Positions 8,776 to 28,939 are shown, counted from the first letter of the stretch. The stretch: DNA of 64,000 nt from Nannocystis pusilla (GCF_051105105.1 NZ_CP185339.1), one strand, 5' to 3'. Translations and numbers: made by a program. The notes: generated by a model not told the origin, from the letters alone.

Positions 8776-11025
8776 ATGCGTAGGATTGTTCTGCCTTTCC
8801 CCCTCTCGGTCGCCCTCGCGACCCTCGCCGCTTGCGGCGACGATGCGACCGTCGACACCACCGCGTCGACCTCCGAGACCTCGACCACCGACGACTCCAC
8901 CAGCACGAGCCCGGGTCCGACCACCGACGCGCCGACCACCGGCGTGCCGACCACGACCGACCCGACGACGTCGACGAGCACGACCGACGCGACCAGCACG
9001 ACGACCGACGACACGACGACCACCACGTCGACGACGGACGACACGACCACGACCACGACGACGACCGACACGACCGACACGACCGACACGACCACCGCCG
9101 CCGACAACTGCGGCGACGGCGTGATCGAGGACCCCGAGGTGTGTGACGGCGCCGCGCTGGCCGACCAGGACTGCGTGTCGCAGGGCTTCGACAGCGGCAC
9201 CCTCGCGTGCGCGGCCGACTGCAGCGCGTTCGACATCAGCGGGTGCGTGCTGGCCTCGTGCGGCAACGGCTCGATCGAGGGCGAGGAGTCGTGCGACGGC
9301 GACGACCTGGCCGGGCAGGACTGCGTGTCGCAGGGCTTCGAGAGCGGCACCCTGACGTGCATGGAGAACACCTGCGTGTTCGAGCTGAGCGGGTGCTTCA
9401 CCTGCGGCGACGGCAACGTCTCGGGCACCGAGGTGTGTGACGGCGCCGAGCTCGGCGGCGAGGACTGCGTCAGCCAGGGCTTCGAATCGGGCGAGCTCGG
9501 TTGCGCGGCCGACTGCGGCGCGCTCGACACCAGCAACTGCAGCACCTGCGGCGACAACGCCCTGAGCGGCGCGGAGGAGTGCGACGGCGCCCTCCTCGGC
9601 GGCGCGACCTGCCAGTCGCAGGGCGCCGACTACGGCACGCTCAAGTGCTCGGCCGACTGCGGCTTCGACGTCTCGGCGTGCATCACCGCCGTGGACGAGA
9701 CCGAGCCGAACGACGACGGCATGGTCGCCACCAGCACCAACGACTTCAGCAGCGTCAACGCCAACGGCCCGTACACCGCCGACACCCTGATCAAGGCGAA
9801 GATCACGCCGGCCGGCGACGACGACGTGTTCGCGGTGCAGAACACCGGCGACGGCTACGCCACGCTGCGGCTCGAGACCTTCAGCATCGAGGGCCCGGGC
9901 ACCTGCACCACCATCGACACGGTGATCGACATCCGCACCGCCGCCAACGTCCTCCTCACCACCGACGATCAGAGCGGCATCAACAACTGCTCGCTCATCA
10001 CCAACTACCCGCTGGCGCCGGGCGAGACCGTCTACGTGCGGGTGTACGACTACCTCGACAATTCCGTCATCGACAACTACCTGCTCGACATCCAGCTCGA
10101 TCCGGTGATCTGCGGCGACGGGGCCGTCGGCGCGGGCGAGCAGTGCGACGACGGCAACGCCGTCAACGGCGACGGCTGCAGCGACGCTTGCAAGGTCGAG
10201 GCCGCGACCGGCGAGATCGAGCCCAACAACACCAACGTGCAGGCCGACGCGACCGGGATCGTGTCGACCGGCAACTCGCTGTTCGTCGGCGCGATCACCC
10301 CGAACGCCAACGTCGACCGCTACCGCCTCGACCTCGCCGCCGCGGGCTTCCTGCGCTTCGAGAGCTTCAGCTCGCTGAACGACTGCGCCGGCATCAACAC
10401 GGTGCTGCGGCTCTACAACACCAACAACACCCAGATCATCGCCGACACCGGCAACCTGGGCATCAGCACCTGCTCGGCGCTGGTGTTCCCGCTGCCGGCC
10501 GGGACGACCTACGTCCACCTCGAGGAGAACGGCAACAACGCCGCCATCCCGACCTACCTGCTCCAGACCGCGCTGCTGACCGACGCCGGCGCCGAGACCG
10601 AGCCGAACGAGGCCCAGGCGGAGGCCAACCTCAACATCCAGAGCGGCTCCGACGTGCTGGTGTACGGCGACCACTCGGTCAACACCGACTCGGACTTCTA
10701 CCGCATCGACGTGCCGGTCTCCGGCAGCTCGCTGCGCCTCGAGATCATCGAGGGCGACCGCACCATCGAGACCTGCGAGAACCTGGGGGTCGACTCGCGC
10801 CTCACCCTGTACAACGCCCAGGGCGTGCAGCTCGTCGACGACGACGACGAGGGCCGCGGTTACTGCTCGATGATCGACGGCACCGGATCGACGCCGCTCG
10901 ACGCCGGCGCGCACAACCTGGCCGCCGGGACCTACTACGTCCAGGTGCGCGCGTCGACGCTCTCCCAGAACGGCGCCGCCGGCCAGTTCATCTACCGGCT
11001 GGCCGCCACCGTCCGCACGCCGTGA
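8776..11025 (+). CDS. Secreted lipoprotein. It has a Thr-rich linker, four 'myxococcus cysteine-rich repeat' modules and three pre-peptidase C-terminal (PPC) domains.
   Basis: Lipobox LATLAAC; a T/D-rich linker; CGDGxxE..CDG..L...DCVSQGF.SG.L.C..DC four times; three EPN(D/N)...YR(L/I)D modules. Confidence 0.85.
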   Translation: MRRIVLPFPLSVALATLAACGDDATVDTTASTSETSTTDDSTSTSPGPTTDAPTTGVPTTTDPTTSTSTTDATSTTTDDTTTTTSTTDDTTTTTTTTDTTDTTDTTTAADNCGDGVIEDPEVCDGAALADQDCVSQGFDSGTLACAADCSAFDISGCVLASCGNGSIEGEESCDGDDLAGQDCVSQGFESGTLTCMENTCVFELSGCFTCGDGNVSGTEVCDGAELGGEDCVSQGFESGELGCAADCGALDTSNCSTCGDNALSGAEECDGALLGGATCQSQGADYGTLKCSADCGFDVSACITAVDETEPNDDGMVATSTNDFSSVNANGPYTADTLIKAKITPAGDDDVFAVQNTGDGYATLRLETFSIEGPGTCTTIDTVIDIRTAANVLLTTDDQSGINNCSLITNYPLAPGETVYVRVYDYLDNSVIDNYLLDIQLDPVICGDGAVGAGEQCDDGNAVNGDGCSDACKVEAATGEIEPNNTNVQADATGIVSTGNSLFVGAITPNANVDRYRLDLAAAGFLRFESFSSLNDCAGINTVLRLYNTNNTQIIADTGNLGISTCSALVFPLPAGTTYVHLEENGNNAAIPTYLLQTALLTDAGAETEPNEAQAEANLNIQSGSDVLVYGDHSVNTDSDFYRIDVPVSGSSLRLEIIEGDRTIETCENLGVDSRLTLYNAQGVQLVDDDDEGRGYCSMIDGTGSTPLDAGAHNLAAGTYYVQVRASTLSQNGAAGQFIYRLAATVRTP

Positions 11026-18696: not shown

Positions 18697-19089
18697 GCCC
18701 TGCGCACGCTTCGGACGCCGCCGGTGCGCCGCTGCGCGTCAGCCCGACACACGCAGCGACGACACCGGCGACGTCCAAACTCGGGCCCGACGCGGGGCAC
18801 CGCGCCGCCGGTCGGGTGGAGACGAGCGGAGCCGCGGCGCGTACGGTCGCGCCAAAGGCTCGCTGCTGCTGGACATCGGGCGAACACACCAGGGGCTCGA
18901 CCCCAAGTCTGGGCGGAGCGTCGGGGGCGGCAATCCGGCGACGATGACCTGCGCCACGAGCAGGTCGCGCGCGGCGCCGCGGCGTCGGTTCGTCGCGGCG
19001 AGGCGGCGCCCGGGCACGAACGCCGATCGGACAGGTGTCGGCCGCGCAGGTGCGACAGTTCGGCTGTGTCGCCGATTACTCCCGATCGC

Positions 19090-20134
19090 TCAGAATGCGC
19101 CGCTGAGGCCGATGTAGGTGGGACCGAGACGCGCGCGCAGGCGGGTCTTGCCGCGGTCGCGGGTGCGCAGGAGCAGCATCGTGCCGGCGGTGCCGAGCAG
19201 GGCGCCCGCGGCCATCACCGCGGCGCCGCCCCAGTCGGTGTCGAACACGAAGCGGCAGCGGCCCGCGAGGTCGACGTTCGGGGCCGTCGCAGCGCCCCCG
19301 GTACTCGTCGCCGTCCAGCGACAGCAGGCCGAGGCCGATCGCGAACAGCGGGATGCCGGTGAACAGCAGGCCCCAGCCGGTGCCGCGCAGCTTGAGGGCC
19401 TCTGGCGTGCGCCGCAGGTCGATCTGCAGGCTCTCGCGGAGGCCGGCCACCGCGACCAGCTCGCGCTCCTCCGGGACGTACCCTTCGGACATGACCCGAA
19501 CGACATGTTTGCCCTCGAGCACGTTGCGCTCGACCGGCGCGGCGCCGACCAGCTGGCCGTCGATGAACACCAGCGCGCCGGGCGGGGTGGTCGCGATCTC
19601 GAACGCCGGCGGCGGCTTGGCCAGGGCGTCGAGCTTGGCCAGAAGGCGCGCGGCCTGGTCGGCCGTCAGCGCCCGCAGCTCGGCCAGGCCGCACAGCTCG
19701 CAGCCGCGCTCGCTCTCGGCCGCGCGCCCGAGGTCGCGGGTGGCGACGAGCTCGAGCCGCAGGGTGTAGTCGCGGTCGCTGACGGTGACCTGGGCCCGCA
19801 GCACGAACGCGGCGCCGAGCTGGTCGCGCAGCCGCTCGAGGCAGGCGTCGTCGCTGCACGCGCCGCCGGCCACGCGCGCCACCGCCTCGGCGTCGAGCAG
19901 CTGCAGCCGCCCGCGCGCGAGCCCGCCGCGCAGGTCCTGCTCGAGCTGCGAGGCGAGCAGCGGATCGTCGGCCCCGCTGATGGCGATCGGCGCGATCGCC
20001 AGCTTGGGCGCGTCGGCCTCGGGCGCCGCGGGGGCCGGGGCACGGGCGCTCTGGGCCGGCTGGGCGGCCGCGGGCGCGGCGGTCAGCGACATGGCCAAAA
20101 GCACATGGATGCCAGGACATGTCCTTCGGAACAT
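19090..20134 (-). CDS. PEGA-domain protein with a signal peptide and an OMP-like C-terminus (...YIGLSGAF). There is a frameshift at a C5/G5 homopolymer near 19290.
   Basis: PEGA motif (PPGALVFIDGQLVGAAPVERNVLEGKHVVRVMSEGYVPEE). Frame a (to ...LSLDGDEYRG) continues in frame b (AATAPNVDLAGRCRFVFDTDW...GLSGAF*). The N-terminal MFRRTCPGIHVLLAMSLTAAPAAA is encoded by a copy of the palindromic element. Confidence 0.7.
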
Positions 20135-20245
20135 GGCTTCAGCCACCGAGCTCCTCCTGGGACGACCGCGCGGAGCGGAGAGACATGGCGATTGCGACAG
20201 GTCCAGGAAGACATGTCCTTCGGAACATGGCCTCAGCCACCGATC
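20092..20245. repeat. Direct duplication (~40-bp cores, ~92 bp apart). Each copy carries a GGACATGTCCTTCGGAACATGGC palindromic element. One copy spans the kinase stop and the other spans the PEGA start.
   Basis: ccaggacatgtccttcggaacatggcttcagccaccga and ccaggaagacatgtccttcggaacatggcctcagccaccga. Confidence 0.85.
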
Positions 20246-22559
20246 TTCTCCTTGACCTTGTCGAGGCGGCCGGCGGCCTTGGCGTGGCCGAGGCTCGGCG
20301 GCCTTGTCGTACTGGGCCTTGGCGTCGGGGTAGCGCAGGACCTTGAAGTAGGCGTCGCCGAGGCGGATCCGGAAGTCGCCCTTCTTCGGCTCGGCCTTGA
20401 CCGCCCGCTCGGCGAACACCACCGCCTGCTCGAAGTGGCCGCGGTCGAACTCGAACGTCGGACAGGCCCATCAGCGCCGCGCCGTTGCGGTTGTAGGCCG
20501 CGAGCGCCTGGTTGAAGGCGCGCTCGGCCGCCGCGAAGTCGCCGCGCCGACGGGCCGCCTCGCCCTCCTGCGTCAGCTCGTCGGAGCGGGCCCGGTCCTG
20601 GGCCGCCTGCGCCAGCTGCTCCTCGGGCTCCGCGGCCGGCGGCGCGGGGGTCGGCGGGGCGGGCTTGGCCTCGGGCTTCGGCTCCGGCTTGCCGGGGCGC
20701 GGGCGTGGCGGCTCGGGCGTCGGCGCGACGGCGACCACGACCGGCGGCGGCTCGGGCGGCTGGGGCGTCGCCGCCGGCGCGGGGTCGGCTGGCTGTTCGG
20801 GCATGTCCTGCGGGACATCCCGCAGCGCCTCGGGGCCGAGCAGCGCGGCCAGCAATTCGGTCTGGGTGGCCGCGCCGCGCTCGCGCACGAACTTGCGCAG
20901 GCGCTCGTCGCGGTGGCCGCGGTCGTGGTCGGCGAGGATCTCGAGCAGCTCGGCGGCGGCGACGTCGGCGGCGGTGAACTCGCCGCGCTCGGCCTTGGCC
21001 AGCAGCTCGGCCATCTGCCCCGGCGTGTAGAGGCCGCGCTCGCGCGCCTTGGCGTGGTCGGGCTGGAACACCAGCGCCTGCGAGTAGAAGTCGCGCGCGA
21101 ACGGCTTGCCGGCGTCGGTGTCCCAGTAGGTGTCGCCGAGCTCGGCGAGCGCGTCGGCGAACTCCTTGCGCAGCTTCTGGGCCTCGTCGCGCGCGGGGCG
21201 TTCGGCCGGGCCCTCGGTGCGGTCGAGCGCGACGACGCGGAGGATCGATGTGTCCTTCGGGTCAGACGCCGGCGGGTACACCCAGTGGGCCGCGCCGCCG
21301 GCGGCGCGCGCGTCGGCGGCGAGCTGGGCGATGTGGGCCAGCTCTTCGGGGGTCGGCGGGCGCTCGCGGGTGGCGAACAGGACGGCGACCGCGGCCACGG
21401 CGGCGGCGGCGACGGCCACCGCGACGCCGCGCCAGCGGCTCGGGCGCGCGAGCACGAGGTCGCGGGTGAGCGCGGCGAGCAGCGCGTCCATCGACGGGTG
21501 GCGCTGGCCCGGCTCGACCGCGAGGCCGCGGACCAGCGCTTCGTGGATGAACGCCGGCACGTCGCCGGGCGGAGGCTTGATGAGCTGGCCGGAGCACACG
21601 CTGTCGGCGAGGTCGAGCAGGTTGTCGCCGGCGAACGGCGGCTGCTGGTACAGCGCGGTCCACAGGGCGACGCAGAAGCTGAACTGGTCGGAGCGCGCGT
21701 CGGTGGCCTCGCCGCGGTGCTGCTCCGGCGACATGTACGCCGGCGTGCCCATGATCGTGCCGGCCATCGTCAGCGCGGTGCTGAAGGCGTTGTGCCGGCC
21801 GACGCGGAGGGCGACGCTGTCGCCGACGCTCTCGGGGGCGGGGCTCGGCTGCTGGCCGGCGGTCCCGGCCAGGCCGAAGTCGGCCACGCGCGCGCGCCCG
21901 TCGTTGCCGATGAGGACGTTGTCGGGCTTGAAGTCGCGGTGGACCAGGCCCTCGGCGTGCGCCGCCGCCAGCCCGCGCCCGGCCTGCACGAACATGTCCC
22001 GGACCTCGCGCCACGATCGCTTCTGCTCCGAGAGCCATGCCCGAAGGGTCAGGCCCTTGACGAACTCCATGGCGACGTAGATCTGGCCGCCCTGCTGGTT
22101 GATCTCGTGGACCTGGACGACGTTGGGGTGCGACAGCCGGGCCATCGCCTGGGCCTCGCGGACCATGCGGTCGCGGGCGTTCGGATCCTGGGCGGCGTCG
22201 CGGAGGACCTTGACGGCGATCCGGCGGTCGAGCTCCTCGTCGTAGGCGGCGTAGACGACGCCCATGCCGCCCTCGCCGAGGGTGCGCAGGACGGAGAAGC
22301 GGCCGAAGCGGGGCGGGGCGGCCACGGGGCCGACCAGCGCGCCGGGGTGCGAGGGCCGGGTCTGATCGAGCGCGAGGGTGGTGGCGCGGGCCGCCGCGAG
22401 CGAGTCCTCGACCGGTCGGTCGAGCGTCTCGTACAGCTCCTCGCGCGGGCGGGGCGCGACCAGCTGCGCCGGCGAGTCGGCGACGAGCGTGGAGTCGATG
22501 CCTCCCCCGCGCAGCGTGTCAGGAGATTCGCGCAGCGTGTCGGGGGGCTGGTTGCTCAC
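20233..22559 (-). CDS. Ser/Thr protein kinase (Hanks type) with a Pro-rich linker and C-terminal TPR. There are two frameshifts, at about 20456 and about 20297. The N-terminal start is uncertain.
   Basis: GEGGMGVVY..AVK, HRDFKPDNVL, DFGLA and GTPAYMSPE; the TPR tail (FNQALAAYNRNGAALMGLSD | FEFDRGHFEQAVVFAERAVKAEPKKGDF...YDKAAE | LGHAKAAGRLDKVKEKIGG*) needs two frame changes. Confidence 0.8.
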
Positions 22560-22724
22560 GGGGAAGTACGACCCGCCCGTCTCGGCCTGGTCGTCTCTCA
22601 CAAGGCTAGCGCCGAACGGCGCAGGCGTGAAAGTGGCGAGTGCGCGCCGGCGAGCGACGCGCGGGGCAAATTCGCGCGAAAAGCCGCGATTGTCGGCCGC
22701 GAGCGCCTCGTTTACACCAAGACG

Positions 22725-23871
22725 ATGGTGACGCACGCGGTCCGCTGGCGAGCGAGCACGGGGATCGTCGCGGTCGTGGCGTTGACGGGTTGCCTCGACC
22801 GGAACCCCGAGTTCGAGGAGCCGCTATTGCCGACCGCGAGCGGCTCGGGCAGCGCGACCACCACGGGAGATCCGACGGCCGACACGACGTCCCAGGGAAC
22901 GACCGGCTCGCCCACCGCAGGGTCCGCGAGCGAGTCGGCGACCACCGCGATCGACCCGACGGACGGGCTGACGACGGGCATGACGACGACCGAAGGGCTG
23001 ACGACGGGCATCACGACGATGGCGCCGGCGGGCTGCGGCGACGGCATCTTGGCGCCCGACGAGGAGTGCGACGACGGCCCGATGAACGCCGACACCGCGG
23101 CCTGCACCAGCACGTGCAAGCTGGCGAAGTGCGGCGACGGGCTGATCCAGACCGACGTGGAGTACTGCGAGGACCGCAACGACGATCCGGCCGACGGCTG
23201 CGTGAAGTGCTTCGAGCCGCACGTGTGCCAGGAGGTGCTCGACCGGGCCCCCGGCGTACCCTCGGGGCTCTACAAGATGGATCCGGACGGGCCGGGGCCG
23301 GGGCCGCTGGTGCCGGTGTACTGCGACATGACGCTGAAGGGCGGCGGCTGGACCCGCGTCGAGCGCAGCCCGTTCGCCGACCCGATCGCGCGCGCGCTGT
23401 TCGAGGACGTCGAGGTCAACTACGACGACCCGACGAACTCGCGCTATCGCATGGGCAAGGCGGCGATGGTCGTGGTGGGGCAGCACTCGAACGAGATGTG
23501 GATCGAGTGCGGCGGCGTCGACCACCTGTGGACCGACTCCGACTTCCTGTTCGCGGGCCAGGACAACCCGAACTCCTGCGCCAACTACGGCAAGGTGCTC
23601 TACAAGGAGGCGCAGCTGAGCGACATCGTGCTGACCAACGTTCGAGCTGTGCACCGGCTTCACCGGCTTCCTCGACGGCGAGTGCCCGGGCGCGTGGCGC
23701 ATCGACGAGCAGGAGCAGGAGCTGTGCGCGCTGTCCAGCACGCCGTGGATCGACGGGCAGATGTTCACCACGCTGTACTCCGACATCTTCGCGGCCGATC
23801 CGGCGACCGTCGAGCCGGAGGTCCATGATTGCCACAAGCCGGGGGCCATCCGCGCGGTGCTTTTGCGCTGA
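22725..23871 (+). CDS. Lipoprotein, paralog 1 of 3. It has a Thr/Gly linker, Cys-rich repeats and a C-terminal domain with a fibrinogen-like 'YCDM..GGGWT' motif. There is a frameshift at about 23640.
   Basis: Lipobox (VVALTGC); CGDGIL..EECDDG; CQEVLDRAPGVPSGLYKMDPDG...LVPVYCDMTLKGGGWTRVERS; the frame-0 part (LTN) continues in frame 1 (FELCTGFTGFLDGECPGAWRIDEQ...HDCHKPGAIRAVLLR*), matching paralogs 2 and 3. Confidence 0.8.
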
Positions 23872-23960
23872 GCGGCGGGCGCGGTGCGCGAGCGCGGCCG
23901 TGCGCTCCCGCGTGCGCGGGCCGATTGTCGGCGGCGTCGGCGTCGACTACACAGAAATTC

Positions 23961-25103
23961 ATGCGTGCACAGCGGAGCGAGCTTGTCGCGGGCGTCGTCG
24001 TCGCCGCGCTGGTGACCGGTTGCCTCGAGTCGAACCCGTGGTTCGAGGAGCCGACCGCTTCGGGCGCCGCCGCGAGCACGACGCAGGCGCCGACGACCGG
24101 GGGCACGACCGCCGCGCCGCCGCCGACGAGCTCGACGAGCGCGGAGTCGACGACGACGACGACGGGGAGCGAGACGACTGGTTTGACTGCGGACACCGAG
24201 TTCAGCACGTCGTGGCCGCTGTCGACCAGCACGACCGAGTGGTTCTCGACCGGCGACCCGTGGACGTGCGGCGACGGCGTACCCGAGGGCCCCGAGCAGT
24301 GCGACGAGGGCGCCGACAACAGCGACAAGGGCGCCTGCACGACGCTGTGCACGACGGCGGCCTGCGGCGACGGCTTCGTGCAGACCGGCGTGGAGATGTG
24401 CGACGACGCCAACTTCGATCCGAGCGACGGCTGCGTCGCCTGCGTGGTCCCGCACTCGTGCAAGGAGATCCTCGACAACGATCCGCAGGCGAGCCAGGGC
24501 CAGCACTGGGTCGACCTCGACGGGCCGGAGCCGATGCCGCTCATCCCGGTGTACTGCGACATGACGACCGCCGGCGGCGGCTGGACGCTGCTCGAGCGCA
24601 GCCCGCGGAGCGACCCGATCGGCCGCGCGCTCTTCAAGGACGCGCCCGAGAACCCGGGCAACCCGCAGGCGCCGCGGTACCGCATGCCACGCGGGGCGAT
24701 GGGCGCGGCCGCCGTCATTTCGACGGCGATGCGGCTCGACTGCGGCGGCTCCGATTACCTGCTGACCGCCCCGCAGTCGCTGTTCGCCGGCGAGTTCGGC
24801 CCGCCGAACTGCACCAACGCGGGCCCGGTGCTCTACCAGGAGGCGGAGCTCAAGCAGTACAAGCTGACGAACGTGCAGCTGTGCACGGTGTTCGTCGGCC
24901 TCGGCGACGGCCAGTGCGCGGGCGCGTGGAGCATCGACGAGGAGAACCAGTACGACTGCCTGCTCCAGGCTTACCCGTGGGCCGGCAACAACGAGGCGAT
25001 CTCGCCGCCGTCGGCCGACGCGTTCGCGGTCGATCCGCAGCAGGTCGACGCCGGCCACGACTGCCACAAGCCGGACGCGGTGCGCCGGATCATGGTGCGC
25101 TGA
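23961..25103 (+). CDS. Lipoprotein paralog 2 with a fibrinogen-like 'YCDM..GGGWT' C-terminal domain.
   Basis: Lipobox (AALVTGC); CGDGVPEGPEQCDEG; CKEILDNDPQASQGQHWVDLDGPEPMPLIPVYCDMTTAGGGWTLLERS; it ends HDCHKPDAVRRIMVR. Confidence 0.85.
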   Translation: MRAQRSELVAGVVVAALVTGCLESNPWFEEPTASGAAASTTQAPTTGGTTAAPPPTSSTSAESTTTTTGSETTGLTADTEFSTSWPLSTSTTEWFSTGDPWTCGDGVPEGPEQCDEGADNSDKGACTTLCTTAACGDGFVQTGVEMCDDANFDPSDGCVACVVPHSCKEILDNDPQASQGQHWVDLDGPEPMPLIPVYCDMTTAGGGWTLLERSPRSDPIGRALFKDAPENPGNPQAPRYRMPRGAMGAAAVISTAMRLDCGGSDYLLTAPQSLFAGEFGPPNCTNAGPVLYQEAELKQYKLTNVQLCTVFVGLGDGQCAGAWSIDEENQYDCLLQAYPWAGNNEAISPPSADAFAVDPQQVDAGHDCHKPDAVRRIMVR

Positions 25104-25132
25104 ATCGTCAATGAGGGGCCGCCCGACGGATG

Positions 25133-25203
25133 CCGTAAATCATGCGGGAATCGAACCCACATTTTCAGATCTTCAATCCGACGCGTTTACCATTTTCGCC
25201 AAA
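25133..25203 (-). tRNA. tRNA-like remnant or pseudogene (Phe-GAA-like anticodon arm, canonical T-arm). The 5' acceptor strand does not pair.
   Basis: Minus strand reads ...GCG-AAAATGGTAAA-CGC-G-TCGGA-TTGAAGA-TCTGA-AAAT-GTGGG-TTCGATT-CCCGC-ATGATTT-A. The D, anticodon and T arms fold. The first 7 nt do not complement ATGATTT. Confidence 0.45.
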
Positions 25204-25380
25204 GATAGATGACGCCCGCCCACGTGGCGGCCCCTCGCGGCGAGGATGACCGCACGCGGCCGCTCGCGTCAAGCCGCGCCGACGCCGCGCGGGCGGTCCT
25301 GCGCCGTTCTCGACGCATCGCGCGATCTCGCCCGAGCGCCGGGAATTGCTGACGGCGGCGCGCTCGACTACACCGGGGAG

Positions 25381-26415
25381 ATGCGACTTGGCTTGCTCGG
25401 TGCGGGGTTGGTGGTGGCGGTGACGGGGTCGACGGCGTGTCTCGACCGCAACCCGCAGTTCGAGGACCCGCTGCCGACGGGGAGCGCGTCGGACGGGGCG
25501 ACGACGAAGGTCGAGGGGACGACGACCGGCGTGCTGTCGACGACGACGAGCACGACGAGCGCGGGGACCACCGTCGAGCCGGGGACGACGGAGCATGAGG
25601 ACACGCATTGGCCGGTGACGACGACGTCGACGTCGTCGACGACCACGGGCATGACGTTCGTGATGGAGACGTGCGGCGACGGGAAGATCGATGGCGGGGA
25701 GGAGTGCGACGACGACAATACGGACATCGAGGACGGCTGCATCGATTGCAAGGTGCCGCGGACGTGCGCCGATGTCCGCCAGTTCGCGCCGAACTCGGAC
25801 TCCGGCGTGTACCTGATCGACGTGGACGGCATGGGCGCCTACCCGCCGCTGGCGGTCTATTGCGACATGGCGACGACGGGCGGCGGCTGGACGGTGATCG
25901 AACGCAGCCCGCGCGAGGATCCGATCGGGACGCCGCTGTTCGTCGACAACGCGGTCAACTCGGATCTGCCGGAGGAGCCGCGCTTCCGGATCAAGAAGGA
26001 GCCGATCGAGCTGCTCCTGCCGCTGGTGGCGGAGATGCGGATCGACTGCGGCGGCGACGATTATCTGCTGACCGACGCGGGGGCGATCTTCAGCGGCGCG
26101 GGGCTGCCGGTCTGTACGATGGCCAAGGTGTTTTACAAAGAGGCCAGGCTCAAGGGCTACGCGCTGACCGACACGGAGCTGTGCACCGGCTTCCACGGGT
26201 CGGCAGACGGCTGCTGGGGCGCGTGGCACGTCGACGAATACTCGCAGCAAGATTGCAGCCTGCCGCCATTCCCGTGGAACTTCATGGTGCCGATCACGAG
26301 CGACGGCGCCGACGCGTTCGCGGTCGACCCGTCGGCGTTCGACAATGGGCAGCTGATGCCGCCGATCCACGATTGCCACCAGCCGGGCGCGGTGCGCGTG
26401 GTGATGCTGCGGTGA
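25381..26415 (+). CDS. Lipoprotein paralog 3 with a fibrinogen-like 'YCDM..GGGWT' C-terminal domain.
   Basis: Lipobox (VAVTGSTAC); CGDGKIDGGEECDDDN; CADVRQFAPNSDSGVYLIDVDGMGAYPPLAVYCDMATTGGGWTVIERS; it ends HDCHQPGAVRVVMLR. Confidence 0.85.
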   Translation: MRLGLLGAGLVVAVTGSTACLDRNPQFEDPLPTGSASDGATTKVEGTTTGVLSTTTSTTSAGTTVEPGTTEHEDTHWPVTTTSTSSTTTGMTFVMETCGDGKIDGGEECDDDNTDIEDGCIDCKVPRTCADVRQFAPNSDSGVYLIDVDGMGAYPPLAVYCDMATTGGGWTVIERSPREDPIGTPLFVDNAVNSDLPEEPRFRIKKEPIELLLPLVAEMRIDCGGDDYLLTDAGAIFSGAGLPVCTMAKVFYKEARLKGYALTDTELCTGFHGSADGCWGAWHVDEYSQQDCSLPPFPWNFMVPITSDGADAFAVDPSAFDNGQLMPPIHDCHQPGAVRVVMLR

Positions 26416-27226
26416 GCCGCGGCGCGGCGTCTTTTTCTAAATGAATGGACAGAGGCTCTCGCGGCGCCTCGGGGCGTGACCGTCAGGCGGTAATCGGGAC
26501 TGGAGCACGCGAAGCGAGGTCCGCCCTACCATTTTGCCCGCATCCACGGCGTGGACCGGCCGCGGCGCCGCGAGAGCCGGCGAATCGTAGGCGCGGCAGG
26601 GGCCGGTCGCAAGGCCTGGGATCGCCCGCGTGCGGGCCGAGGACGGGCGGTCATGGTCCCACCGCTGCGCGCGAGGTGCCGCGAAAGGCTGGAGCGCAGC
26701 GACGAGCGCGGTGACTCGGTCGAGGCGCAGAGCTACGACCAGTTGACCTCGGAGACGCCGTTTCCGGCCCTGACACCGGTCTTGCGGCGCTGTTCGCCGT
26801 CAGGCCGTGGCGCCCGGGACGGAGCCGCGGCCGCGGGTACATCCCGGTGTGGACGATCGAGCTGCTCGCGCGCGAGCGGCGAGCGATGGAGAGGTGCGGG
26901 TCGAATGGGCATGGTGGTCTGGGAAGGCTCGGTTGGCCTGCCAGGGAGAGGCACCGACTCGCGGCAAGTCGCAGGGAAACTTCAGCGTCGATGCGCGCTG
27001 GAGAGCGCAGGGCCCTTGTCCGGATACACCGCCACCTCATCGGGCCCCGCGGGTAGCGGGGCGATGCGCCGGTAGACTCGCTGAATGGCGGTCAGCCGCC
27101 AAATGCCGCTTTCGCGCAGCAGAGCGGGCGGGCTGATTCGCCCGGCGAAGTGTGCTGCGCACACCTTGCGCTCCTGCTCGCCTGCACAGGCTTGAAACGA
27201 GAGGGGGGTGTGGAGACCATCTAAGC

Positions 27227-28939
27227 ATGGTCGAAATAGTATTGCTCTGTATCCTCGGCCTCGCTCTATTGGGGCTCGGGGGCGTCTTGCGACGGTTGCG
27301 GGCGCTCAGCGCTACGCATACCGAATTACAACGACGATTTGCGCCTGTGGTCGAGGTCGACCTGGAGCTTCAGCGCGTCAAGACGGAGGTGGACGAGGAG
27401 CGTAGGCGCTTCGCTGCCGAGCGCCAACGCGGCGCCTCGGAGGTAGAGACCGCCCGCTCGCAGGTAGCCGCGGAGCGCACCGCCGTCCTTGCGCAGCGCG
27501 CGGCGGCGGCCGCCGAGCTCGACGTGGAGCGTCGCAATCTGGCCGCCGAGATGGATGGGGAGCGCCGCCGCCTGGCCGCCGAGCTTGAAGAGGAGCGGCG
27601 CCACATCGCCGCCGAGCATCAACGCGGCGCAGCGGAGGTGGAGAGCGCTCGTTTGCAGCTCGCCTCGGAGGTCGCCACTTTGCAGGCACAGCGCCAGCGA
27701 AGCGCGGTCGAGATCGACAGCTTTCGCCGCCAGGTCGCCGCCGAGGTCGCAGCGCAGCGCGCTGCTGCCATTGCCGAGGTGGAACAAATCCATGCCGGCA
27801 GCGCCAAGCTGAGGGCGGAGTTCGCGGCTCTCGACGAAGAGAGCAACCTGCAGGCCTTCGCCTTCTACAAGCCACGATACGCGTTCGCCAGCTCCGAGCA
27901 CTATCAGAGCAAGCTGGAAGAGATCCGTGAGCGGCAGAAGCGCATGCTCAAGGACAAGGAGGCGGCGACCTGCGCCGAGGAATGGCTGGTCAATGGCAGC
28001 AAGGTCGAAGGGCGCAAGCAGATCAACCAGACCTTGAAGCTGATGCTGCGCGCGTTCAACGGCGAGTGCGACGCAACCATCCCCAAGGTGCGCTACAACA
28101 ACGTCGGCGTGATGGAAGCGCGCATCCGCAAGGCCTGGGACGTCATCAACAGCTGTGCCGAGGTGCAGCGCTGTACGATCAGCGACAGCTACCTTTGTCT
28201 CAAGCTGGAAGAGTTGAGCCTTGTCCACGAATACGAGGAAAAGGTCCAGCAGGAGAGGGACGAACAGCGCCGGATCAAGGAGCAGATGCGGGAGGAAGAG
28301 CAGGCTCAGCGCGAGCTGGAGAAGGCCAAGCAGGAGGCAGAGAAGGAGGAAGCTCGCTTCGCGGAGGCGCTCAAGAAGGCTCAGGAAGAGGCCCAACGCT
28401 TGTCAGGAGCGAAGCAGCAGAAGCTGATCGCGCAGGTCGCCGAATTGGAGCGGAAGCTGGCGGAGGCCCAAACGAACAAGGCACGCGCGGTCTCGCGGGC
28501 CCAGATGACCCGTTCAGGTCATGTGTATATCATCTCGAACATCGGGTCGTTCGGGGAACACGTGTACAAGATCGGCATGACACGGCGGCTCGATCCGATG
28601 GATCGCGTCAAGGAGCTCGGAGACGCTTCGGTCCCGTTCGAGTTCGATGTTCATGCGATCATATACGCCGAGGACGCGCCGAAGCTGGAGAGCGAACTGC
28701 ACAGAGCATTCCATCACCGGCGCGTCAACCGGGTGAATGAGCGCAAGGAGTTCTTCAACGTCTCGATCATGGAGATCGCCGAGCACGTACGCCTGCATCA
28801 TCACGCCAGCATCGAGATCGTCCACGAGGCCGAGGCCATGGAGTACAGGAAGACGCTGTCCATGACGCAGTCCGCCCCGAACCTCGCGCCCGATCCGAAG
28901 CAAGCGCTGGTCAGGCTCGCGGCGGGGGCCGGCGCGTGA
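27227..28939 (+). CDS. Protein with an N-terminal TM, a long coiled coil, and DUF4041 plus T5orf172 (GIY-YIG/MUG113-like) domains. Its GC content is clearly lower than the surroundings.
   Basis: MVEIVLLCILGLALLGLGGVL; ER/AE-rich heptads; GHVYIISNIGSFGEHVYKIGMTRRLDPMDRVKELGDASVPFEFDVHAIIYAEDAPKLESELHRAFHHRRVNRVNERKEFF; many A/T-ending codons. Confidence 0.8.
   Translation: MVEIVLLCILGLALLGLGGVLRRLRALSATHTELQRRFAPVVEVDLELQRVKTEVDEERRRFAAERQRGASEVETARSQVAAERTAVLAQRAAAAAELDVERRNLAAEMDGERRRLAAELEEERRHIAAEHQRGAAEVESARLQLASEVATLQAQRQRSAVEIDSFRRQVAAEVAAQRAAAIAEVEQIHAGSAKLRAEFAALDEESNLQAFAFYKPRYAFASSEHYQSKLEEIRERQKRMLKDKEAATCAEEWLVNGSKVEGRKQINQTLKLMLRAFNGECDATIPKVRYNNVGVMEARIRKAWDVINSCAEVQRCTISDSYLCLKLEELSLVHEYEEKVQQERDEQRRIKEQMREEEQAQRELEKAKQEAEKEEARFAEALKKAQEEAQRLSGAKQQKLIAQVAELERKLAEAQTNKARAVSRAQMTRSGHVYIISNIGSFGEHVYKIGMTRRLDPMDRVKELGDASVPFEFDVHAIIYAEDAPKLESELHRAFHHRRVNRVNERKEFFNVSIMEIAEHVRLHHHASIEIVHEAEAMEYRKTLSMTQSAPNLAPDPKQALVRLAAGAGA

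Follow-up and report, generated by a model that had tools for sequence, protein, structure and literature searches.

We report three tandem genes in a 64,000-nucleotide (nt) stretch (the window; ~72% G+C) of the genome of the predatory soil bacterium Nannocystis pusilla that encode paralogous proteins with a lipobox, a flexible linker and a Cys-rich stalk, and whose C-terminal heads of ~215 amino acids (aa) open with the A subdomain of the fibrinogen-related domains (FReDs). The signature itself already belongs to a curated family, NF040941, named in NCBI annotation. What we add is new but modest: an FReD/intelectin-like fold is predicted for the whole head and not for the GGGWT motif alone; the last 166 residues of the head appear to form an uncurated, sequence-orphan region found in a few dozen protein clusters; and the triplet appears to be an ancient, syntenic and relatively fast-evolving feature of Nannocystis. 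We judge it about an even prospect that the proteins display recognition or adhesion heads, most likely glycan-binding, with a different specificity in each of the three paralogs.

The three genes, termed g1, g2 and g3 in map order, are co-directional on the + strand at exactly the spans given in the initial annotation. Five loci from Nannocystis species (L001-L005) were used as orthologs. The features of the cluster are as follows.

22725..23871, + strand: g1, lipoprotein paralog 1, 381 aa after repair of a 1-nt insertion; orthologs in L001-L005 intact over residues 1-381
22725..22793, + strand: g1 signal peptide with lipobox ALTG-C (Cys23), read from sequence; CLDRNPEFEEP after the Cys
23034..23225, + strand: two Cys-rich acidic repeats of g1 (TIGR02232 / DUF4215), 2 stretches in Pfam and NCBIfam scans
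23226..23868, + strand: C-terminal FReD-like domain of g1 with the frameshift inside it; GGGWT A subdomain, then an orphan region ending HDCH; NF040941 57 bits
23961..25103, + strand: g2, lipoprotein paralog 2, 380 aa, intact; best homolog 86% identical
23961..24023, + strand: g2 signal peptide with lipobox LVTG-C (Cys21), read from sequence
24267..24458, + strand: two Cys-rich acidic repeats of g2, from Pfam and NCBIfam scans
24459..25100, + strand: C-terminal FReD-like domain of g2; A subdomain at domain residues 1-50, orphan region at 51-216 (AW.IDE..Q, HDCH); 8 invariant Cys
25381..26415, + strand: g3, lipoprotein paralog 3, 344 aa, intact; orthologs 88-89% identical in L001 and L005
25381..25440, + strand: g3 signal peptide with a looser lipobox, GSTA-C (Cys20); orthologs have STGC, LSAC and STAC
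25672..25764, + strand: single Cys-rich acidic repeat of g3 (TIGR02232, 1 stretch)
25765..26412, + strand: C-terminal FReD-like domain of g3; NF040941 64.2 bits; Pfam Fibrinogen_C 30 bits (gathering score 22), profile positions 2-48 only
26416..26438, + strand: terminator-like GC hairpin with T-run directly 3' of the g3 stop codon, from a hairpin search; a weak call (2 sites versus 1.4 expected in shuffles)

The products share one order of parts, from a signal peptide with lipobox, through a mature N terminus of the form CL(D/E)xNPxFE(E/D)P, a Thr/Ser/Gly-rich linker of 75-80 residues and the Cys-rich repeats, to the ~215-aa C-terminal domain. The lipobox previously claimed for each copy is present in all three (ALTGC, LVTGC and GSTAC) and, as read from sequence, is kept in the orthologs, with the STAC of g3 being looser than the classical L-x-[GA]-C. 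Two Cys-rich repeats had likewise been claimed for every gene; this holds for g1 and g2 but not for g3, in which TIGR02232 finds only one stretch (37.9, 25.3 and 24.6 bits for g1, g2 and g3 over 2, 2 and 1 stretches; cut-off 20.8). The corresponding Pfam family, DUF4215, passes in g1 at 42.3 bits and falls slightly under its cut-off of 27 in g2 (26.5) and g3 (23.9). Because the hairpin that follows g3 is the sole terminator-like + strand site in the cluster, g1-g3 may constitute one operon. We also observed an element, TCG(A/T)(C/T)TACAC, 8-10 nt 5' of the ATG of each paralog (22705-22715, 23924-23952 and 25345-25373), perhaps a translation-initiation or promoter-proximal signal that has been duplicated.

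In all three proteins the head opens with the block C..(I/V)...P....G.Y..D.DG......VYCDM.T.GGGWT..ERS and ends with HDCH(K/Q)P(G/D)A(V/I)R...(L/V)R. The initial annotation had drawn both ends more narrowly. Its opening C(K/Q/A)E(I/V)L fails for g3, which begins CADVR, whereas the downstream VYCDM.T.GGGWT..ERS block is common to the three, and its conserved HDCH terminus stands in the broader form HDCH(K/Q)P(G/D)A(V/I)R. The fibrinogen A-subdomain signature that it recognized is genuine. The NCBIfam model NF040941 (GGGWT_bact) matches g1, g2 and g3 with 57.0, 59.8 and 64.2 bits against a cut-off of 30, at E-values of 1e-15 to 8e-18, which are well outside chance, and over profile positions 1-46 of 46; this model spans only the 46-residue A subdomain and is silent on the next 166 aa and on function. 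Pfam Fibrinogen_C (PF00147) also aligns to the A subdomain of all three, in each case limited to profile positions 2-48 of 221, which span the first disulfide pair and the YCDM...GGGWT block, but only g3 exceeds the gathering score of 22 (30.0 bits, with 20.7 for g2 and 14.7 for g1). A weak match to Pfam COLFI, again over the first ~48 profile positions only, reflects the homologous segment.

The closest database proteins (86%, 77%, 68% identical and lower) all come from Nannocystis and carry the NCBI name 'fibrinogen-like YCDxxxxGGGW domain-containing protein', the best homolog of g2, at 86%, being from Nannocystis sp. ILAH1. Since the orthologs already bear the NF040941 name, the signature is real but represents an existing curated family. 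As to the earlier proviso that the motif might belong to another known family, it does fall in a curated bacterial family, one that is itself named fibrinogen-like.

Sequence searches of the PDB with the domain returned only chains of the FReD superfamily, with intelectin-1 the best match (E 1.5e-6), followed by ficolins, XEEL, MFAP4, tenascins, angiopoietins and fibrinogen beta. A 30-sequence family profile recovered the same set of families (XEEL at E 4e-8). Every one of these alignments stops at about domain residue 50-55. In agreement with this boundary, hhalign of the family profile against human ITLN1, whose sequence was verified against 4wmq_A and is identical save for one known variant position, gave 49 columns at 39% identity and no similarity to the intelectin-specific region past the A subdomain. 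When the last 166 aa were searched alone, no Pfam family was matched at E<=10 and the sole PDB sequence match was at chance level (E 0.71), which bears out the earlier statement that the remainder of the domain diverges from canonical FReDs. Canonical FReDs carry the B/P motifs W..Y..GFG / EFWLG and NCA..GGWW..C..NLNG; these are absent from the aligned family sequences.

Past the A subdomain, the likeness to FReDs is one of predicted structure. An AlphaFold2 model of g2 residues 100-380, built on a 53-sequence alignment, is confident, with a predicted local distance difference test score (pLDDT) of 93.3 and a predicted template-modelling score (pTM) of 0.86, and two independent models agree on the order of secondary structure. 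Among the 50 Foldseek matches listed, all are FReDs or X-type lectins, at E about 1e-6 to 6e-5 (98 matches at E<=1e-3), although the template-modelling (TM) scores of 0.27-0.49 all lie below 0.5. The model bears an overall resemblance to the X-type lectin/intelectin fold, and intelectin is the closest fold whether the A subdomain is included or removed; the superpositions have a root-mean-square deviation of 3.6-4.3 Å and TM-scores of 0.32-0.41. In the structural comparison, the related procollagen C-propeptide scores 5.6 and the first unrelated fold, TLDc, 4.4. The domain ends in a hydrophobic β-strand and a terminal Arg, as do the intelectins (...VRVVMLR versus ...AAVLLFYR in ITLN1).

Our reading of the model is that the head would be a highly divergent member of the FReD superfamily, with a canonical A subdomain and a retained central β-sheet core that is FReD-like and closest to intelectin. 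In place of the canonical P-subdomain ligand/Ca2+ site there would be a region peculiar to the family, which has four disulfides and in which acidic, His and Trp residues are invariant (AW.IDE..Q, D...D and HDCH). The residues invariant across the family, in g2 domain numbering, are eight Cys together with E48, R77, D101, Y128, E130, W159, E163, Q166, W176, D194, D199, H202 and H205.

With a profile of the complete head we screened 1.84 billion cluster representatives, which gave 7,407 proteins at E<=1e-3. The best 150 comprise ~35 end-to-end matches and ~10 fragments, and the rest cover positions 1 to 50-100 only. On these counts the GGGWT module is widespread and the complete 'HDCH-type' head appears to be a small family, whose named members come from Nannocystis, Nannocystaceae, other Myxococcales and Archangium. 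Partial GGGWT matches often occur as 3-15 copies per giant protein, and some are eukaryotic. The description of fibrinogen-related domains as rare in bacteria consequently overstates the novelty, given that the A-subdomain module is found in thousands of cluster representatives and NF040941 is already curated. A profile of the orphan region, searched against a set of 5.8 billion proteins, returned 7 metagenomic proteins only and did not recover the known members, and is uninformative on taxonomy.

One of the relatives, P0125 (L024 5001-8627, on a 560-kb contig of a Joint Genome Institute (JGI) metagenome), contains five FReD-type domains in a single bacterial protein. Among these are a Fibrinogen_C domain of canonical type, nearly complete (profile positions 3-186 of 221), and, at the C terminus, an HDCH-type head. 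The neighbours of P0125 on the contig include MotA/ExbB, OmpA and pseudouridine synthase genes, and the adjoining gene encodes a 2154-aa Peptidase_S74 protein. These data bear on the alternative of a chimeric head, with FReD ancestry limited to the ~50-residue GGGWT module and an unrelated fold for the next 166 aa, whose likeness to intelectin would be convergent or a modelling bias. We consider this distinctly unlikely. The presence of the module by itself in thousands of proteins, the predominance of matches restricted to the first 50-100 positions, the loss of sequence signal past residue ~55 and the TM-scores below 0.5 are all as such a chimera would have it, whereas the agreement of two independent models on secondary-structure order, the intelectin-like C-terminal strand with its terminal Arg, and the occurrence of the same head in series with canonical FReDs in P0125 argue against it.

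Elsewhere, the head is fused to Laminin_G_3, DUF4842, RCC1 and Kelch propellers, PKD and MopE-like repeats; the Laminin_G_3, RCC1, Kelch, PKD and MopE-like partners are typical of extracellular binding architectures. Bdellovibrio bacteriovorus has tandem gene pairs (L007 4435-7350 and L017 5755-8658) with two GGGWT FReD-like domains per gene, of subtypes that differ from the Nannocystis head, one ending ...CNFKFYLR and the other ...VELWVK. Relatives are concentrated in the predatory lineages Myxococcota and Bdellovibrio, a pattern suggestive of a radiation of FReD-like heads within bacteria, with predatory lineages prominent in it. The 'mosaic adhesive trimer' fibre proteins of Bdellovibrio were considered as a link and dropped, as fibrinogen is never mentioned in that paper.

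The triplication is directly visible in the DNA as repeat families spaced ~1233 and 1306 nt apart with 66-82% identity, as in an old duplication; this value is too low for recent gene conversion among the paralogs, which we rejected on this ground. At the protein level the paralogs are 40-49% identical (49% for g2 versus g1 and 47% for g2 versus g3 in the C-terminal domain), and full-length identity is 40-47% in the comparison with the orthologs of Nannocystis sp. RBIL2. The order kinase, g1, g2, g3, in which the kinase is a divergent Ser/Thr kinase, is kept in 5/5 Nannocystis species (L001-L005). Each gene is nearest to its positional ortholog (60-92% identity) and far from its paralogs (38-47%), from which we infer that the triplication is older than the genus Nannocystis. 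In N. exedens (L002 7475-8035) the third paralog matches g3 residues 159-344 only, and in N. punicea (L003 7165-9472) g2 and g3 are separated by an insertion of ~2.3 kb, so that the locus has not been fully static. Upstream of g1 and divergent from it lie the kinase with its TPR tail (20142-22604, - strand) and a PEGA-domain protein (19079-20122, - strand). The kinase linkage is not kept at the distant homologs whose neighbourhoods were examined, synteny being found within the genus only. The distant homologs sit among unrelated genes, so the linkage to the kinase is no evidence of functional coupling, and we rejected gene neighbourhood as a sign of it.

To compare rates, the ratio of nonsynonymous to synonymous substitution (dN/dS) was computed pairwise by the Nei-Gojobori method (NG86) between the window and its orthologs, with the caveat that NG86 dS is compressed at ~93% G+C in third codon positions (GC3), which inflates the ratio. 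The values are 0.37-0.64 for g1, 0.51-0.95 for g2 (0.54-1.33 for its head alone) and 0.40-0.69 for g3, compared with 0.21-0.39 for the adjacent kinase and 0.12-0.24 for the downstream DUF4041 gene. Against the closest relatives, dN is 0.04-0.08 in the triplet and 0.015-0.03 in the kinase, a three- to fivefold difference. The triplet thus appears to evolve faster than its kinase neighbour, which fits diversification without proving it. The initial annotation had called the triplet diversifying; the rise relative to the neighbours lends this weak support, with ratios mostly below 1 and confounded by codon bias.

Although g1 had been listed as an ordinary gene, it is not an intact open reading frame (ORF) in the window, and its span of 1147 nt does not divide by 3. 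Read in frame 0, the ORF ends at a stop at 23828, and the conserved HDCHKPGAIRAVLLR end sits one frame further on (+1). A single surplus T at 23641/23642 is responsible: the window has GTTC where the orthologs of N. pusilla and Nannocystis sp. RBIL2 have GTC, and the last 76 codons are thereby shifted to the +1 frame. Because g1 is intact in 5/5 Nannocystis orthologs, we attribute the frameshift to a sequencing error or else to very recent pseudogenization. A programmed frameshift was rejected, since there is no slippery motif and the extra T occurs in 0/5 orthologs.

As for where the proteins reside, the predicted signal peptidase II (SPII)-type signal peptide would lead to attachment through the N-terminal Cys and yield a disulfide-rich, lipid-anchored envelope protein. 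In the lipoprotein sorting of Myxococcus xanthus, Lys at +2 specifies the inner membrane and Ala at +7 the matrix (PMC3222651). The mature N termini of g1-g3 have Leu at +2 and E, W or Q at +7, so by these rules their default destination would be the outer membrane. There, the mucin-like Thr/Ser/Gly stalk of 75-80 residues and one or two rigid Cys-rich modules would hold out the globular head of ~215 residues, whose ligand may be a glycan or some other small determinant on the surface of other cells or on matrix, and the three paralogs would provide three specificities.

An alternative is that these are periplasm-facing outer-membrane lipoproteins in which HDCH and invariant Glu/Asp residues make the orphan C-terminal region an enzyme or a metal-binding module, and the FReD A subdomain serves only as a structural cap. 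The invariant or near-invariant H202, D203, C204, H205, E163, Q166, D194 and D199 do look like a metal or catalytic site, no known family accounts for the last 166 aa, and surface exposure is no more than predicted. We nonetheless give this alternative little credence: C204, as one of the eight invariant Cys, is most simply half of a disulfide in an exported protein, and the long mucin-like stalk and adhesin-type partner domains better suit a displayed binding head.

A displayed head need not be a lectin. In animals, several FReDs have protein partners, as in angiopoietin-Tie2, tenascin-PTPRZ, FGL1-LAG3 and the knob-hole contacts of fibrinogen, and the Nannocystis heads could similarly bind proteins or organize matrix, through a protein partner or self-association in the envelope or matrix. 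The acetyl/Ca2+ site motifs of lectin FReDs are missing here, and the RCC1 and Kelch propellers of other family members are protein-interaction modules. However, intelectin, the nearest fold whether or not the A subdomain is counted, is a glycan-binding lectin; no conserved neighbouring gene hints at a protein partner; and the invariant Trp/Asp/Glu/His set would be more typical of sugar or metal sites. We hold protein binding to be unlikely, if by no means negligible, and favour a displayed recognition head that is most likely glycan-binding.

Several points weigh against this preferred reading. The similarity by sequence ends at domain residue ~55, with the canonical B/P motifs and Ca2+ site apparently absent; no alignment was found to the B/P subdomains of Fibrinogen_C, including the Ca2+/ligand-site region (profile positions ~49-221), and the Foldseek TM-scores are low. 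We found neither experimental nor contextual support for any ligand, and the unrelated neighbours of the distant homologs give no conserved pathway hint. The assignment to the outer membrane extrapolates sorting rules from Myxococcus to Nannocystis, and lipoproteins in the outer membrane of diderm bacteria are often turned towards the periplasm. The raised dN/dS, besides being inflated by compressed dS, may equally mean relaxed constraint, and in this window g1 carries a frameshift.

The role for which FReD and intelectin domains are best known is that of pattern-recognition lectins, by which animals bind the sugars of microbes. If the Nannocystis heads bind glycans, they would offer a handle on prey, kin or matrix recognition by myxobacteria, and the known sequence space of the FReD fold would be extended. 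In a paper library searched for work on bacterial or myxobacterial fibrinogen-like proteins, we found no functional study of NF040941-type family members. A bolder and rather improbable extension is a predator-specific radiation of fibrinogen/intelectin-type heads in Myxococcota and Bdellovibrionota, in which the Nannocystis triplet would be surface receptors that read prey or neighbour glycans and the orphan 166-aa region a new ligand-binding solution on the FReD core. If true, the triplet would mirror, on the bacterial side, those lectins of animal innate immunity that read the glycans of bacteria, and might even be an evolutionary source or sink for them.

Other genes of the window include a 906-aa ORF (30648-33365, + strand) with Pfam MVP_shoulder and Vault_3 domains, a major-vault-protein-like gene in a myxobacterium. 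The DUF4041 gene downstream of the triplet (27152-28939, + strand) also carries a T5orf172/MUG113 (GIY-YIG-like) domain and has a repetitive, coiled-coil-like N-terminal half. Its dS against the Nannocystis orthologs is ~0.6, compared with 0.06-0.16 (RBIL2) and 0.28-0.41 (N. bainbridge) for the lipoprotein and kinase genes, a contrast that suggests different codon usage or a different history. A 749-aa exported-looking protein (8776-11022, + strand) has one DUF4215 Cys-rich repeat (CGDGAVGAGEQCDDG at ~10111) and no GGGWT domain.

Among known systems, the nearest by sequence is NF040941 itself: all three proteins score 57-64 bits over its whole 46-position model, and the RefSeq orthologs and paralogs of Nannocystis are so named. 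The model, however, spans the A subdomain only, whereas these heads extend 166 aa further. The intelectins (human ITLN1, PDB 4WMQ/4WMY/6USC, and Xenopus XEEL) have a domain of ~280 aa compared with ~215 aa here, and the similarity by sequence is confined to the A subdomain. The intelectin ligand site, with its Ca2+-coordinating and exocyclic-diol-binding residues, lies outside the aligned stretch. Intelectins are secreted, disulfide-linked trimers, whereas the bacterial proteins are predicted from the lipobox to be lipid-anchored. With the canonical FReDs (PF00147: ficolins, fibrinogen beta/gamma, angiopoietins, tenascins and FIBCD1), only profile positions 2-48 of 221 are held in common; those domains have two disulfides and a collagen or coiled-coil stalk, in contrast to the four predicted disulfides and lipobox anchor of the proteins described here.

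The closest parallel in design comes from the same phylum. TraA, the kin-recognition receptor of Myxococcus xanthus, has an N-terminal PA14 lectin-like variable head, a Cys-rich TIGR04201 stalk and a C-terminal MYXO-CTERM tag (PMC3325183). The design logic is the same, with a lectin-like head on a stalk of Cys-rich repeats tethered to the envelope. The topology is inverted, as the Nannocystis proteins have the lipobox at the N terminus and the FReD-like head at the C terminus, and the repeats are TIGR04201 in TraA and TIGR02232 here. Pfam and NCBIfam scans at E<=1 gave no PA14, TIGR04201 or MYXO-CTERM match in g1-g3, which end right after the head. TraA is an analogue of the Nannocystis lipoproteins and not a homologue.

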